From: Longivirga aurantiaca
GTDB lineage: Bacteria > Actinomycetota > Actinomycetes > S36-B12 > CAIYMF01
Length of the DNA stretch: 32,000 nt
NCBI RefSeq assembly: GCF_042660085.1
Contig: NZ_JBHSTI010000008.1
Coordinates: forward strand, 900,001-932,000
Direction: 5' to 3'
The notes beneath the pieces are model-generated. The model made no database searches. It was not told where the DNA came from and worked only from the letters and a program-made list of their open reading frames with translations. Every line of letters starts with the position of its first letter. Positions within the stretch are counted from its first letter, which is position 1. A program made the position numbers and the translations under genes. This document shows, piece after piece, positions 15,271-20,842 of this stretch.

Positions 15271-15397
15271 CGCCATCGCCGCGCAACGTGCCGATCGCGG
15301 GCGTAGCGTCAGCAGGGCAGGGAGGCTGCGACGTCCCCAGCCGAGCGGGCCGCGCCCGGTGCGAGGGGATGCCCCGAACCGCGGTGAGGAGTGCGTC

Positions 15398-15874
15398 ATG
15401 AAGGCATCGGTGGGAGACCGCATCATCATCGTCCCGCGCACGGTCGGCGGACCTGTGAGGGACGCCCGCGTGGTCGAGGTCAGGAACCCTGACGGCTCGC
15501 CGCCCTACCTCGTCGAGTGGAGCGACTCGGGCCAGCAGGCGCTGTACTTCCCGGGCTCGGACGGGCGGATCGAGCACCTCGAGGACCAGCCCGAGCAGCG
15601 CGACACCGGCGGCTACCACGTGAAGACGTGGCGGGTCACGGTGCACGTGTTCGAGCACGACCCCTCGACGGCGGCGCACGCCGTGCTGATCGCGGACTCG
15701 GGCATCCCGTTGGAGGCCAAGGGATCCGCACGCCGGGCACCGTCGGACCCCGACGTCCCCGAGATCGGCGACGAGGTGGCCGTGGCCCGGGCGCTGCGCG
15801 AGCTCGCGGACTCGCTCATGGCGACGGCGACCAAGGACATGGCCGGCGCCGCGGGCGGCGACCGCGCCTGGTGA
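15398..15874 (+). CDS. DUF1918-like / DUF1876-like two-domain protein
   Basis: ATG at 15398 after GAGGAG. The N-terminus GDRIIIVPRTVGGPVRDARVVEVRNPDGSPPYLVEWSDSGQQALYFPG is DUF1918-like (SH3-like). The C-terminus WRVTVHVFEHDPSTAAHAVLIADSG...PDVPEIGDEVAVARALRELADSL is DUF1876-like. Assignments are from memory of the family consensus. Confidence 0.6.
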   Translation: MKASVGDRIIIVPRTVGGPVRDARVVEVRNPDGSPPYLVEWSDSGQQALYFPGSDGRIEHLEDQPEQRDTGGYHVKTWRVTVHVFEHDPSTAAHAVLIADSGIPLEAKGSARRAPSDPDVPEIGDEVAVARALRELADSLMATATKDMAGAAGGDRAW

Positions 15875-15889
15875 GCGACGGCGTCCCGG

Positions 15890-16453
15890 TCAGCCGCGCG
15901 TCGTGGGGGAGAACCGGTCGCGCAGGCCCTCGACCATGCGCTTGCTCCGGTTCTCGGCGAAGCGGGCCTCGGCCCGGGCCATCTTCTTCGGGCCGTACCA
16001 GCGCCTGGCCCAGAAGGAGGTCGGCTTGGCGAGCCGGATCGCGCCGACGTACGCGAAGAAGGGCACGGGGAGCCCGATGAGCCCGGTGATGGGTTTCCCC
16101 TTGAGCATGCACAGGATGCACAGCCCGATGTGGGTGACGAGGAAGACCATGGTGAAGATGAAGCCCTGCTCCTGCGCCGCCGTGAGGTCGCCGACGGGGG
16201 AGACCCCCACGAGCAGCGCCGCGCCCACGACAATCGCGATGAGCACGGCGTCGATGGACTTCTGACCCTGCTCGGACCAGTAGACGTCCTCGAGGTGCAG
16301 CCATAGCGCGAACTCGTCGAGCGCGAGGGCCGCGCCGATGCCGAACAGCGCACCCAGCACCTCGGCCCACGGCGACTCGGGCCGGTAGCGGAACTCGATC
16401 AGCCCGACGAGGAGCACGAGCAGGATGCCCCACACCTGGTGGTGCACGTGCAC
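15890..16453 (-). CDS. Polytopic integral membrane protein, unknown function
   Basis: About 5 TM helices (VWGILLVLLVGLIEF, VLGALFGIGAALAL, AVLIAIVVGAALLVGV, FIFTMVFLVTHIGLCILCM, LIGLPVPFFAYVGAI) and a basic C-terminal tail. The first canonical start is GTG 16453, but the frame stays open and coding-like upstream (see findings). Confidence 0.65.
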   Translation of the reverse strand: MHVHHQVWGILLVLLVGLIEFRYRPESPWAEVLGALFGIGAALALDEFALWLHLEDVYWSEQGQKSIDAVLIAIVVGAALLVGVSPVGDLTAAQEQGFIFTMVFLVTHIGLCILCMLKGKPITGLIGLPVPFFAYVGAIRLAKPTSFWARRWYGPKKMARAEARFAENRSKRMVEGLRDRFSPTTRG

Positions 16454-17105: not shown

Positions 17106-17429
17106 TCACGCGAGCCAGCCGTGCACCGTCCAGGCGATGCCGGCCACCGCGGCGGCGGCGATGACGGCGAGGTAGGCCAGGACGAGGCGGACGTCGCGGA
17201 GATAGCACCGGCTGCGGGTCAGCCCCGCGCGGTGCGCCCGCCAGTAGCCGGCGAGCCCGATGCTCGCGAAGACCAGCACGGCCAGGGGTCCGAAGACCCA
17301 GGCGAGCAGGGCGACCGTCGTGAAGATGCACAGCCGCAGGGGATCGAACGGGGTCGAGGGTCCGGAGGCAGCGAGGCCGGGGTCCCCGGGCAGCGGGCGT
17401 CCCGGGACGCCCGCAGGACTGGTGGTCAT
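17106..17429 (-). CDS. Small (107 aa) three-TM membrane protein, last gene of the fused cassette
   Basis: ATG at 17429 overlaps the radical-SAM stop (ATGA, 17426-17429). MTTSPAGVPGRPLPGDPGLAASGPSTPFDPLRLCIFTTVALLAWVFGPLAVLVFASIGLAGYWRAHRAG...VLAYLAVIAAAAVAGIAWTV. The tracked ORF extension to 17966 is an out-of-frame shadow of the radical-SAM gene. Confidence 0.6.
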   Translation of the reverse strand: MTTSPAGVPGRPLPGDPGLAASGPSTPFDPLRLCIFTTVALLAWVFGPLAVLVFASIGLAGYWRAHRAGLTRSRCYLRDVRLVLAYLAVIAAAAVAGIAWTVHGWLA

Positions 17430-19015
17430 GTCGTCCTCCGTCCGGCCGACAGCGACAGCCGCTGGGCCGAGAGCGCCGGCCACGCCTGGACGGCGCAGAA
17501 CGGGGCGCACTGGTCCCCCTCGTCGCCCCGCGTGCCGACGTGCACGCAGCACTGGGTCAGTCGCTCCTCGATCATCGTGTGGCGGTCCATGAACGGCTTC
17601 ACGGTGATGCGCACGACCCGCTCGCCGAGCATCCGGCGCAGATCCTGCCGTCGCCCGGGGAGACCGGCGGCGGCCGCCATCCTGAGCAGCGAGGAGATCC
17701 CGAGGTCGCACGCCTCGCACACGTCGCGCCAGAGCGCGCCGACGTCGGGGTGGGAGAGGCTGCTCTGCTCGCTGAGCAGGCCGAGCAGCGACTCCTTGAC
17801 GGCCGCCTGGAGCTCCTGGGGGAGCTCGCGGTCGGCGATGCGGTTGGCCACGAGGCCGAGGTGCTCCTTGAGCCGCTCCTCGCCCACCATCGCGACGAGC
17901 GACTTCCACTCGCCACCGTCGGTGCGCAGCAGGTACCCGACGCTGCAGCAGTGCGGGTGCGAGCACGGCAGCGCCGTGAGGTCGTGCCAGGTGACGACGC
18001 CACCCGTCTGGGGCCCGAGCCGGGCGAGGACCCCGGTGTGGGTGAGGCGCTCGGTCGGGTCGACGTCGTGCGACCTGCCCGACCCGAACACCGGCTGGAT
18101 CGAGACGCCGCCGACGAACGGCGTCGCGAGCGCGAGCATCACGACGTCGCCGATCTCGTCGTCGTTCACCCCGAGCGTCGCGGTCATGGTCAGCGTCGTG
18201 AACACCTCGGCCGAGGACAGCCGCTGCAGCGCGAGCCTCTTGATCTGGCGCAGGTCGCCACCCCGGTGGTGGCGCGACGACTCCTCGCGCAGCCCGTCGA
18301 ACTGGAGGTAGACCTCGACGCGCTCCCGGTGCCGCCGGAGCAGCCCGAGCAGGGCGTCGTCGCGGGAGACCTCGACGCCGTTGGTGTTGAGGAGGATGCG
18401 CACGACGTTGCGCGACACGAGCTCGTCGAGCAGGCGCGGCAGCTCCGGGTGCAGCGTGGGCTCGCCCCCGCTGATCATCACGACGTCGAGCCGTCCGTTC
18501 TCACGCGCCAGCCGCTGGTCGACGTTGGCGAGGACGTCCTCGACGGGGACGACGCCGGAGAGCAGGGGCGAGGCGTCGGTGAAGCAGGTCGGGCAGCGGA
18601 GGTTGCAGCCCTCGATGACGTCCTCGAGGAGGATGCACGTGTGCTGCGTCTGCATCTCGCCGAGGCCGCGCAGGTAGGCGCCGGGCACCGCGTCGTAGTT
18701 GCCCGGCGAGTCGGGGACGTGCCACTTCGTGGGCGCCGTCCACTGCTCGAGGTAGGTGAGGATCCCGGGATCCTCGTCGTACAGCGTGCGGACGAACCCG
18801 TGCACGGGGCAGCCGCGCTCGAGCCACACCCGCCCGTCGCGCTCGGCCAGCCAGCCGGAGAGGCGTCGTACCTCCGCCAGCGGCTGGCCGTCCTGCTCGA
18901 CGTGGCAGTGCGGGCAGAACGCGACGACGTAGCGGCGCACGCGGTCGCCGCGCAGCGGCATGCCCTCGCCCCACGTCAGCTGCACGCTCGTGGACGTGCT
19001 GGTGTCGAGAGCCAT
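17426..19015 (-). CDS. Radical SAM enzyme with N-terminal zinc ribbon and Cys-rich C-terminus (MJ0619/Tes-like architecture)
   Basis: ATG at 19015 shares one nucleotide with the upstream stop (TGATG). Motifs: CPHC...CPVH zinc ribbon; CNLRCPTC radical-SAM cluster motif; ISGGEPTL; C-terminal CSHPHCC and CCVHVGTRGDEGDQCAPFC. Confidence 0.85.
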   Translation of the reverse strand: MALDTSTSTSVQLTWGEGMPLRGDRVRRYVVAFCPHCHVEQDGQPLAEVRRLSGWLAERDGRVWLERGCPVHGFVRTLYDEDPGILTYLEQWTAPTKWHVPDSPGNYDAVPGAYLRGLGEMQTQHTCILLEDVIEGCNLRCPTCFTDASPLLSGVVPVEDVLANVDQRLARENGRLDVVMISGGEPTLHPELPRLLDELVSRNVVRILLNTNGVEVSRDDALLGLLRRHRERVEVYLQFDGLREESSRHHRGGDLRQIKRLALQRLSSAEVFTTLTMTATLGVNDDEIGDVVMLALATPFVGGVSIQPVFGSGRSHDVDPTERLTHTGVLARLGPQTGGVVTWHDLTALPCSHPHCCSVGYLLRTDGGEWKSLVAMVGEERLKEHLGLVANRIADRELPQELQAAVKESLLGLLSEQSSLSHPDVGALWRDVCEACDLGISSLLRMAAAAGLPGRRQDLRRMLGERVVRITVKPFMDRHTMIEERLTQCCVHVGTRGDEGDQCAPFCAVQAWPALSAQRLSLSAGRRTT

Positions 19016-19413
19016 CACGCAGTCCCGGCGCTGTTGATGAGCGCGACGCAGACTCCGGCGAACACGATCAGCCCGATGCCGCACCCGATCACGATGCCCA
19101 TCCAGATGCTGCGCGTGCGCACCTCCGTGGCCCGGGCGGTCATGATCCCGGCGATGATCAGCATGGCCGGCACGGCCACGACGGTAAGGCTCGCGAGAGC
19201 TGCGAGCACGGTGGTGATGACCGCGCTCCACGCGACCGTGGCTGTGTCGTAGCGCCGCTCGCCAGGCCCGGCCGAGGGCGCTGGAGGCAGCGGAGGTGCA
19301 GGCGGCGGCGGGGACGCCGCTGCCTCGTCGCCCGCCTCGGACGGCGGCGGCACGGCGGCCTCCTCCGGCGGCCGGTCGTCGTCGGGGCTCGTCGGGATCG
19401 TGGGGTCGCTCAT
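19015..19413 (-). CDS. Small (132 aa) membrane protein with an acidic Pro-rich N-terminus and a Cys-containing C-terminal TM region
   Basis: ATG at 19413 overlaps the Lgt-like stop (ATGA, 19410-19413). MSDPTIPTSPDDDRPPEEAAVPPPSEAGDEAAASPPPPAPPLPPAPSAGPGERRYDTATVAWSAVITTVLAALASLTVVAVPAMLIIAGIMTARATEVRTRSIWMGIVIGCGIGLIVFAGVCVALINSAGTA. Confidence 0.65.
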   Translation of the reverse strand: MSDPTIPTSPDDDRPPEEAAVPPPSEAGDEAAASPPPPAPPLPPAPSAGPGERRYDTATVAWSAVITTVLAALASLTVVAVPAMLIIAGIMTARATEVRTRSIWMGIVIGCGIGLIVFAGVCVALINSAGTA

Positions 19414-20222
19414 GTCGTCTCCCTCGTCGGCACGGTCAGGGTGGGCAGGATCCGGTCGTAGGCGCCCGCCCGCCAGCCGCGGTGAAGGCGGAGGGCGAGC
19501 AGCGGTGAGAGCACCAGGATGAAGACCTGGGATCGGGTGAGGCCGAGGAGGTCCGGCGGGTTGGCCCGCGTGAACTCGACGCCGAAGCGGAACAGGGCGT
19601 ACGCCGCGATGAACAGCACGAAGGTCTCGCCGGGCGCCTCGATGCGGTCGCGGACCGCCCGCAGCGCGAGGAAGGCGAGGACCAGGAAGGCGATCTCGTA
19701 CAGGAACGACGGGTGCATCGGCACCCCGGCGAGGCAGCCCGGGCACTCCGGGATGCTCGCCGCGACGGCCGGGTCGACGGTGATCCCCCAGGGGAGCGAC
19801 GTCGGTCGGCCCGGAGCCTCGGCGAGCAGGCAGCCGATGCGGCCCACGGCCAGGCCGACCGCCACGGCCGGTGCGAAGAGGTCGCCGGTGCGACCGGAGT
19901 AGCCGCCCACCCGTTTGCCGACCAGTGCCCCGACGTAGGCGCCGGTGAGGCCGCCGAGGATGCTGCGCCCGCCCTCGCTCCACGCCCACGCGAGCACGCC
20001 GCCGCCGTCCTGCGTCGCGGCGTCGAGGATGCCGGCGAGGCGCGCTCCGAGCGCGCCTCCGACGACGATGCCGGCCACGACCGGGATGAGCCGCTCGTCC
20101 CACATGCGGCGACGGCGTGTCTCGAGCAGGAAGACGGCCAGGCCCGCGAGGAAGCCGAGGCCGACGAAGAACTCGTGGCTGGGCACGGACAGCCCGCCGA
20201 GAGTGAAGAGCGTAGGGTGCAC
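19410..20222 (-). CDS. Prolipoprotein diacylglyceryl transferase (Lgt) family protein, probable paralog
   Basis: GTG at 20222 preceded by GGGAGGGGGAGG. Lgt-family motifs are present: GLSVPSHEFFVGLGFLAG, GRSILGGLTGAY, LAVGRIGCLLAEAPGRPTSLPWGI, HPSFLYE and FRFGVEFTR. The product is polytopic. Confidence 0.8.
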   Translation of the reverse strand: MHPTLFTLGGLSVPSHEFFVGLGFLAGLAVFLLETRRRRMWDERLIPVVAGIVVGGALGARLAGILDAATQDGGGVLAWAWSEGGRSILGGLTGAYVGALVGKRVGGYSGRTGDLFAPAVAVGLAVGRIGCLLAEAPGRPTSLPWGITVDPAVAASIPECPGCLAGVPMHPSFLYEIAFLVLAFLALRAVRDRIEAPGETFVLFIAAYALFRFGVEFTRANPPDLLGLTRSQVFILVLSPLLALRLHRGWRAGAYDRILPTLTVPTRETT

Positions 20223-20311
20223 GTCCTCCCCCTCCCGCGGGCGTCCCCGGTGCACTACGTCGTACGGTAGCCAAAGGGGCGGCCCGAAGAGCGCCCTCCG
20301 GGTAGGTCGCC

Positions 20312-20842
20312 ATGGTCGTCGTCGGCATCGTCGTCATGATCTGGTGCGCCCTGCGCATCGCCGAGCACGTCCTGTCCGTCCTCGACACGGTCGTCCTGCG
20401 CGAGGAGGGCGCGGTCGAGGCGTGCTCCCGCCAGCACGTGCCCCTGCTGCTGGCCAACCTCGCCGTGCCCGCCCTGGTGCTCGCCGCCTGCTGGCTGGCC
20501 GTGCGCAGGGGGGAGCCGGTCACGGTCGGTCCCGCAACCTGGGCCTGGCTCGCCGTGCTCGTCGTTGCCGAGTGCGTGCACTGGTGGGCCATCGCCACGC
20601 TCGGCCGCCGGTGGACCACGGGGGTGCTGGTGCTGCCCGGAGAGGCGCCGGTGGTCCGAGGGCCCTACCGGTGGCTGCGGCACCCCGGCTACGCCGCCGG
20701 CGTGACGTCAGCCGTGGCGCTGCCCCTCGTGGCAGGAGCCTGGGTCGTGGCGGCACCGGTCGCGGTGATGTTCGCGGTCGTCGTCGTACTGCGCGTGCGG
20801 TGCGAGGACCGCGCCTGGCTCGACGTGGGCGCCGCGGCCTGA
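20312..20842 (+). CDS. ICMT/PEMT-family integral membrane methyltransferase
   Basis: 176 aa, 4-5 TM. VVRGPYRWLRHPGYAAG followed by RCEDRAWL matches the isoprenylcysteine carboxyl / phospholipid methyltransferase core (RHPxY...E). It is divergent from the Lgt-like gene across 89 bp. Confidence 0.75.
   Translation: MVVVGIVVMIWCALRIAEHVLSVLDTVVLREEGAVEACSRQHVPLLLANLAVPALVLAACWLAVRRGEPVTVGPATWAWLAVLVVAECVHWWAIATLGRRWTTGVLVLPGEAPVVRGPYRWLRHPGYAAGVTSAVALPLVAGAWVVAAPVAVMFAVVVVLRVRCEDRAWLDVGAAA

Follow-up and report, generated by a model that had tools for sequence, protein, structure and literature searches.

A conserved gene module pairing an Lgt paralog with a Tes-like radical-SAM enzyme and small membrane proteins in Longivirga aurantiaca and other bacteria

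Do four overlapping minus-strand genes of Longivirga aurantiaca form a functional unit, and what might such a unit act on? The genes lie in a stretch of 32,000 nucleotides (contig NZ_JBHSTI010000008.1, positions 900,001 to 932,000), which is called the window here and whose own numbering is used for all coordinates. They encode a paralog of Lgt, the phosphatidylglycerol:Cys diacylglyceryl transferase, a Pro-rich membrane protein of 132 amino acids (aa), a radical S-adenosylmethionine (radical-SAM) enzyme of 529 aa and another membrane protein of 107 aa. A sequence-only reading of the window had proposed that this cassette, together with a divergent methyltransferase gene of the ICMT/PEMT family, lipidates, radical-modifies and methylates a small membrane protein or a membrane lipid. 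The five open reading frames (ORFs) were found at the coordinates given by that reading, and the lengths of 132, 529 and 107 aa were correct. All five have a high GC content at third codon positions (GC3, 0.90-0.97) in a window of about 72% GC. Hidden Markov model searches detected the Pfam domains LGT (3e-34), Radical_SAM (5e-19), Zn_ribbon_HMPTM (1e-9), ICMT (2e-19) and PEMT (9e-8). Our results showed that the four minus-strand genes are a conserved module, and that the methyltransferase gene most likely stands outside it.

Among the 1.8 billion cluster representatives searched, the clade of the radical-SAM enzyme formed essentially one 50% cluster. Its members are about 70-88% identical across Nocardia, Nonomuraea, Microbispora, Mycobacterium/Mycolicibacterium and freshwater actinobacterial metagenome-assembled genomes. 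Relatives of the enzyme are encoded in at least 570 species genomes. The Lgt paralog was encoded directly upstream of the radical-SAM gene, on the same strand, in 81 of 83 actinobacterial loci, and the contigs of the other two end at that point. The adjacency was seen in many Mycolicibacterium species other than M. smegmatis. When all ORFs of the 83 loci were clustered, no other broadly conserved gene was detected, and beyond the cassette there was lineage-specific synteny only.

The genes of the window are joined by overlaps on the minus strand, as had been claimed: ACATGAGC at 19410-19413 (an ATGA overlap), GTGATGG at 19013-19017 (TGATG) and ACATGACC at 17426-17429 (again ATGA). The 4-nucleotide overlap between the radical-SAM stop and the start of the 107-aa gene recurs in about 50 related loci, and the overlap between the Lgt stop and the start of the 132-aa family gene in most loci outside Nonomuraea. 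Because the same overlaps recur across related loci, they are conserved rather than due to chance. Together with the 83-locus linkage and the motif counts of the small proteins given below, these overlaps support the proposal that the four genes are a conserved functional module.

The pairing extends to a second phylum. The radical-SAM clade that is 41% identical to the window enzyme belongs to Armatimonadota, where the gene order is radical-SAM, Lgt (with a GR.GC motif), Zn-ribbon membrane protein and small two-Cys protein. This order is held in two metagenomic contigs (L085 and L086) and in the complete genome of Fimbriimonas ginsengisoli (L092). In addition, LGT, Zn ribbon and Radical_SAM domains are joined in one chain in P0355 (733 aa) and in P0359 (671 aa), both of metagenomic origin. 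Both fusions carry the GR.GC motif of the N146C type, and in both the radical-SAM part follows the Lgt C-terminus. The adjacency in two phyla, the retention of the pair despite rearrangement and the natural fusions together showed that the Lgt paralog and the radical-SAM enzyme work as a unit.

Several observations were made on distant or fragmentary versions. In P0257, a 393-aa metagenomic fragment that is 68% identical to the window radical-SAM enzyme, an LGT domain reads into the Zn ribbon and radical-SAM domains; this actinobacterial-type sequence could be a genuine fusion or could result from a frameshift. The C-terminal extensions of P0326 and P0378 were low-complexity or probably frameshifted tails and were uninformative. 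Beside the fusions lies a family of four-Cys polytopic membrane proteins (C..LC..C.KHA.V.CGLR), at L088:4686-6065 next to P0359 and at L087:3-806 next to P0355. The L088 member carries an N-terminal rhodanese domain, a hint that distant versions of the module may involve sulfur chemistry. No NCBIfam or Pfam family was found for the partner proteins of the distant or fused versions.

The Lgt paralog is encoded at 19410..20222 on the minus strand. Its longest ORF runs to 20255, and we placed the start at GTG 20222, which gives 270 aa, because homologs have 267-271 aa. The Pfam LGT domain (PF01790) covers the full length of the protein (3.2e-34, residues 14-248 against profile positions 1-229 of 240), and the E. 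coli Lgt structure 5AZB was matched at 5e-7. In contrast to canonical Lgts, the protein scored under every NCBIfam lgt cut-off (74.7 bits for TIGR00544, whose cut-off is 118.9), and far under those of the other lgt models. Residues were compared by aligning 81 family members to E. coli Lgt, whose numbering is used here; the E. coli sequence used agrees with the stretch shown in the 5AZB match. The reported Lgt motif comprises 13 residues (Y26, H103, G104, G142, R143, G145, N146, E151, G154, Y235, R239, E243 and R246), of which the window protein retains 10. G104, D129, G142, R143, G145, E151, G154, H196, S198, Y201, E202, Y235, R239, E243 and R246 were invariant in the family alignment.

The other three motif positions are altered throughout the family. 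Y26H and N146C were fixed in all 81 members, and position 103 was Leu in 78 members, including the window protein, and Ile in three. The family also carries an extra invariant CxxC, which is ECPGC in the window protein. In E. coli Lgt, Y26, H103 and N146 are essential; Y26 and N146 were assigned to phosphatidylglycerol entry and H103 to thiol activation or substrate positioning, and the H103 position varies among true Lgts (Tyr, Trp or Phe). Also kept are R143 and R239, with which E. coli Lgt positions the phosphate of phosphatidylglycerol. The paralog thus resembles canonical Lgt (E. coli 5AZB/5AZC; M. smegmatis MSMEG_3222) in its full-length domain and its phosphate-binding arginines, and its basic C-terminal tail fits the cytoplasmic C-terminus reported for the E. 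coli enzyme. It differs in the three substitutions, the CxxC, the sub-threshold scores and its genetic association with, and at times fusion to, a radical-SAM enzyme. No second, canonical lgt was found within the 32-kb window. The fixed substitutions in the 81-member alignment indicated that the Lgt-like gene is a specialised paralog and not a standard Lgt, in agreement with the sequence-only reading.

The same Y26H and N146C substitutions were reported for MSMEG_5408, the second Lgt homolog of M. smegmatis. This species has both types; MSMEG_3222 is the main Lgt, while MSMEG_5408 is non-essential and is presumed to have low activity. Since MSMEG_5408 shares both substitutions with the window protein, it is probably the M. 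smegmatis member of the paralog family. Judged from these substitutions, M. smegmatis probably carries the module.

The radical-SAM gene lies at 17426..19015 on the minus strand, and its product carries the Pfam domains Radical_SAM and Zn_ribbon_HMPTM. The best NCBIfam models were TrsS (NF045646; 181.1 bits, cut-off 490) and Tes (NF045702; 145.2 bits, cut-off 450). TrsS was the best-scoring curated model and aligned over nearly the full length (residues 50-509), and the Tes model aligned to residues 32-354 only. Among solved structures, the sequence matched GDGT-MAS (7TOL/7TOM) alone, at 9e-31. With an AlphaFold2 model as query (mean predicted local distance difference test score, pLDDT, 61; predicted template modelling score 0.69; poor around the cluster loops), Foldseek returned 7TOM and 7TOL as the sole full-length fold matches (E 6e-22, template modelling score 0.59-0.65). 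The next matches had E values of about 1e-5 and covered the radical-SAM core alone. The next full-length sequence relatives, 47% and 41% identical, were likewise under the Tes and TrsS cut-offs. Judged by its sequence, the enzyme is a distant relative of archaeal Tes/GDGT-MAS that belongs to the Tes/TrsS superfamily; because it scored under both NCBIfam cut-offs, it is placed in neither of the two curated families. The radical-SAM enzyme of the cassette can thus be placed in the lipid-tail-modifying lineage of Tes/GDGT-MAS.

Cysteine and histidine residues were compared across 16 homologs. The N-terminal CxxC...CxxH ribbon (C34, C37, C69 and H72) and the CxxxCxxC motif of the SAM cluster (C137, C141 and C144) were invariant, as were C127, C351, H353, H355, C356, C433, C436, C489, C490, H492, C503 and C507. 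Tes has four domains (rubredoxin-like, N-terminal, radical-SAM core and C-terminal), and its metal sites are a rubredoxin-like site of three Cys and one His, the radical-SAM CxxxCxxC motif and two auxiliary [4Fe-4S] clusters. The C34/C37/C69/H72 group fits the rubredoxin-like site in its pattern of three Cys and one His. The residue-by-residue alignment to 7TOL covered the C-terminal FMD...CC.H...PFC segment. The window enzyme thus appears to resemble Tes/GDGT-MAS in its radical-SAM core, its putative rubredoxin-like ribbon, further conserved Cys/His groups and the C-terminal CC.H...PFC motifs.

The enzyme also differs from Tes. The two are about 19% identical in the structural alignment, and the 9e-31 match to M. 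jannaschii GDGT-MAS misses the 1e-50-type cut-offs of published surveys of Tes homologs. The window enzyme is always partnered by the Lgt paralog and small membrane proteins, and the papers on Tes that were consulted describe no such partners. It also stands in a bacterial, ester-lipid context. The genera carrying the cassette are cultivated aerobically. Compared with TrsS, which it matches over nearly the full length, the window gene has no in-frame stop codon, so the enzyme has no selenocysteine; in the literature we found no description of TrsS function, and where TrsS is mentioned it is merely listed. A possible functional analogy is with Mss of Thermotoga, a radical-SAM enzyme proposed to couple acyl tails. 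Mss was reported to be distinct from Tes homologs, and has so far come from anaerobes only.

The 107-aa protein is encoded at 17106..17429 on the minus strand, and its ATG overlaps the radical-SAM stop. Its sequence matches that of a Longivirga aurantiaca hypothetical protein at 100% identity. Its family comprised 416 homologs, all unnamed and without Pfam domains, and distant relatives keep both cysteines at similar spacing. The invariant residues were D29, P30, L31, L33, C34, T38, W44, G47, P48 ... Y62 ... C75, L77, D79 and R81. C34 lies in a DPLxLC motif at the start of helix 1, and C75 in S[RK]CxLRD, a basic loop ahead of helix 2. The sequence-only reading had described a protein with three transmembrane segments; the AlphaFold2 model (pLDDT 71) instead has two long helices, residues 30-67 (30-46 and 48-67, kinked at G47-P48) and 74-106. 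By the positive-inside rule, C34 would be located at the outer face of the membrane and C75 at the cytoplasmic face. The two-Cys motif was present in 53 of 81 loci. In one Nonomuraea locus recorded twice, the two-Cys protein has 63 aa in the GenBank chromosome (L001) and 105 aa in the Logan assembly (L002), probably because one of the records contains a frameshift or was assembled differently.

The 132-aa protein (19015..19413, minus strand), whose ATG overlaps the Lgt stop, has an N-terminal region that is acidic and rich in Pro, followed by hydrophobic segments and a basic loop, and its last helix carries a conserved motif. The family motif in this C-terminal helix is [RK][GS]xxxGxxxG(7-10)[GA]xC (RSIWMGIVIGCGIGLIVFAGVC in the window protein). 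It was found in 74 of 79 loci, and the N-terminus was variable and Pro-rich. The near-invariant Cys lies about 20 residues past the basic loop and 6-20 residues from the C-terminus. The gene stands between the Lgt and radical-SAM genes, and upstream of Lgt in Nonomuraea. In Armatimonadota, the counterparts have an unrelated Zn-ribbon N-terminal domain, yet they share the basic loop, the helix and a Cys after small residues (LGAC, MGAC or IGGC). This geometry, in the 132-aa family as in its counterparts, resembles that of a lipoprotein signal peptide with its lipobox. Neither small protein has a Pfam domain or belongs to a curated NCBIfam family. The small membrane proteins are plausible as substrates or partners of the two enzymes, as had been suggested.

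Further observations concern these families and their loci. A match of the 132-aa protein to SepX/GlpR was dropped (20 bits, cut-off 150), since it is best explained by the Pro-rich composition. An uncalled ORF at L085:5372-5700, between the Lgt gene and the gene of a 111-aa protein, encodes a tandem Zn-ribbon membrane protein that is a paralog of the 111-aa protein and whose helix ends in LFGALGAC. In seven Mycolicibacterium loci without the 107-aa protein (L055, L060, L061, L069, L073, L077 and L081), an Ala/Pro-rich protein of 370-386 aa with a hydrophobic, signal-like N-terminal segment is encoded about 130-180 nucleotides downstream of the radical-SAM gene.

Is the divergent methyltransferase part of the system? 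The gene lies at 20312..20842 on the plus strand, its translation contains the RHPGY motif, and the gap of 89 bp to the Lgt-like gene is right provided that the latter starts at GTG 20222. ICMT-type enzymes act on a lipidated Cys at the C-terminus of a protein, whose carboxylate they methylate. This had led to the proposal of a CaaX-like pathway of lipidation, radical modification and methylation, and the divergent arrangement is kept in the closest relative (L089; radical-SAM enzyme 88% identical, ICMT 71% identical). However, the ICMT gene was found beside the cassette in that relative only. Searching with tblastn detected it in none of 83 related loci, and no ICMT/PEMT gene was present in the Pfam-annotated contexts examined, including those of Armatimonadota, or beside the fused versions. 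The conserved cysteines are also internal (C34 and C75 of 107 aa; 6-20 residues from the end in the 132-aa family), and the cassette contains no protease gene. The ICMT gene is thus most likely a lineage-specific neighbour outside the system. Without it, the scheme loses its third step and the CaaX analogy with it, and we regard the three-step pathway as largely refuted and extremely improbable.

A working model can be built on what was observed: the families to which the enzymes belong, their strict gene linkage, the fusions and the conservation of the cysteines. From these observations we infer what the substrates, the order of steps, the product and the chemistry may be. The model is a membrane complex in which the variant Lgt would handle a diacylglyceryl lipid and a docked Tes-like enzyme would form a C-C or C-S bond on an acyl chain, the lipid probably sitting on a cassette-encoded Cys. 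The product would be a radical-modified diacylglyceryl lipid, its tails probably cross-linked. We hold this model tentatively, at a little short of an even chance. The Lgt paralog retains the phosphate-binding and catalytic core of the transferase, and would use a non-standard partner. The likeliest partner would be an invariant Cys at the outer helix end of a cassette small protein; candidate acceptors are the [GA]xC of the 132-aa family and/or the DPLxLC of the 107-aa family. The Tes-like enzyme would dock on the cytoplasmic face, at the cytoplasmic end of Lgt, because the fusions place it after the Lgt C-terminus, which is cytoplasmic in E. coli Lgt. There it may abstract hydrogen from an unactivated carbon of an acyl chain. 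As in Tes, an auxiliary-cluster adduct may then lead to a new bond, either C-C (tail-to-tail or macrocyclic) or, possibly, C-S. A more specific and unlikely version of this model is a protein-anchored, membrane-spanning bolaform lipid, in which Lgt would put a diacylglyceryl group on the outer Cys and the Tes-like enzyme would then join an acyl end to a second tail or to the inner Cys of the 107-aa protein.

Several points weigh against the proposed complex. The main difficulty, which every model faces, is that the Lgt centre would open to the outer leaflet (if the E. coli topology applies), whereas the radical-SAM enzyme must be cytoplasmic, and none of the models accounts for how one substrate would get to both. 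The small proteins have highly conserved helix sequences (GLGLGLMIGW, for instance), as seen more often in structural subunits than in substrates. The Cys is mostly preceded by a bulky residue (Phe, Leu, Val or Ile) in Actinomycetota, unlike in the canonical lipobox. Since 26 Mycobacterium-type and Aldersonia loci lack the 107-aa family, this protein cannot be a universal substrate; the only other loci without the two-Cys motif were two with apparent problems of assembly or frame. Finally, since E. coli Lgt depends on Y26, H103 and N146, the paralog may no longer act as a transferase and may only bind lipid.

The main rival explanation is somewhat unlikely in our view. Here the enzyme pair would act on a free phospholipid, the small proteins would be structural subunits, and their cysteines would bind metal or form disulfides; the Lgt paralog would serve as a membrane subunit that binds and presents lipid, or would move diacylglycerol to another lipid. 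The only characterised radical-SAM relatives act on free lipids, Tes using archaetidylglycerol, an analogue of phosphatidylglycerol, and membrane-spanning lipids have been put forward as products of bacterial Tes homologs. Strong helix conservation would be expected of subunits, and the dispensability of the 107-aa protein in some mycobacteria and the alteration of three Lgt residues essential in E. coli also speak for this rival. On the other hand, S-alkylation of Cys is the sole known chemistry of the Lgt family, and a free-lipid pathway leaves unexplained why small proteins of two phyla, though unrelated, have retained a Cys in the same place behind a basic loop and a helix. Nor are membrane-spanning or macrocyclic acyl lipids known to occur in Nocardia, Nonomuraea or Mycolicibacterium, which we also counted against it.

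The other rivals are lesser. The radical-SAM enzyme might modify a protein or peptide rather than a lipid tail, by a cross-link such as a thioether or in another way. Its target would be the Cys motif on the cytoplasmic side of the 107-aa protein, or a different protein, and in either case the Lgt paralog would only anchor or lipidate the protein so modified. The invariant C75, in the S[RK]CxLRD loop predicted to be on the cytoplasmic side and close to the place where the radical-SAM enzyme has to be, is consistent with this, as are the translational coupling of the radical-SAM and 107-aa genes, weak NCBIfam matches to peptide maturases such as AlbA, and the Cys-rich membrane proteins, one with a rhodanese domain, beside distant fused versions. 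However, the full-length likeness in sequence and fold was to GDGT-MAS only, SPASM or peptide maturases matching the core, and many loci have the enzyme pair without the 107-aa protein; we consider this explanation quite improbable. It is still less probable, and indeed very doubtful, that the Lgt-like protein is a second housekeeping Lgt with the radical-SAM enzyme as an unrelated neighbour. The literature does treat MSMEG_5408 as a possibly redundant Lgt homolog, and about 1300 RefSeq genomes have two lgt genes. Such redundancy is contradicted by the natural fusions, and the 81/83 adjacency, its retention after rearrangement in a second phylum and the fixed substitutions at three residues essential in E. 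coli speak against it.

The genes surrounding the cassette in the window are ordinary and unrelated to it. They encode a GntR regulator, a CoA-transferase, an acyl-CoA dehydrogenase, DUF1918/Rv2632c-like and DUF1905 proteins, a DAO oxidoreductase, a PNPOx-like protein, an aminotransferase and an AsnC regulator. The two-domain DUF1918 and Rv2632c-like protein (15359-15874, plus strand) also adjoins the cassette in the nearest relative (L089:3611-4084), and was regarded as local synteny for that reason. A hydrophobic 187-aa protein with a strong coding signal (15890-16453, minus strand; GC3 0.97) had no Pfam match. Promoter/terminator and Rfam scans of the region and the window found no features.

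The gene combination appears to be undescribed, as the sequence-only reading had supposed. Searches of the literature on Lgt with radical SAM or Tes, on MSMEG_5405-5409, on actinobacterial Tes homologs and on TrsS found no such pairing; the papers retrieved dealt with Tes, Mss and Lgt or mentioned MSMEG_5408, and in none of them was a Tes-like enzyme connected with an Lgt paralog, nor were the small-protein families described. MSMEG_5408 is discussed solely as a weak or redundant Lgt homolog, and MSMEG_5406 solely as a zinc-responsive hypothetical protein. The components are known kinds of enzymes; their combination, its breadth and the fusions are new.

In conclusion, the second lgt of the MSMEG_5408 type, which so far had no assigned role, is now tied to a specific partner enzyme, and this gives it a testable function. 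The module is carried by isolates of Nocardia, Nonomuraea and Fimbriimonas ginsengisoli, which makes it experimentally accessible. If the chemistry is as we propose, Tes-like radical lipid chemistry would be placed in widespread soil, freshwater and clinical Actinomycetota and in Armatimonadota, beyond the settings known for it. A protein-anchored bolaform lipid, if true, would be a bacterial, protein-linked counterpart of archaeal tetraether chemistry and a categorically new conjugate. The finding bears on what bacterial Tes homologs do and on which bacteria make the cross-linked lipids that are used as geochemical proxies.

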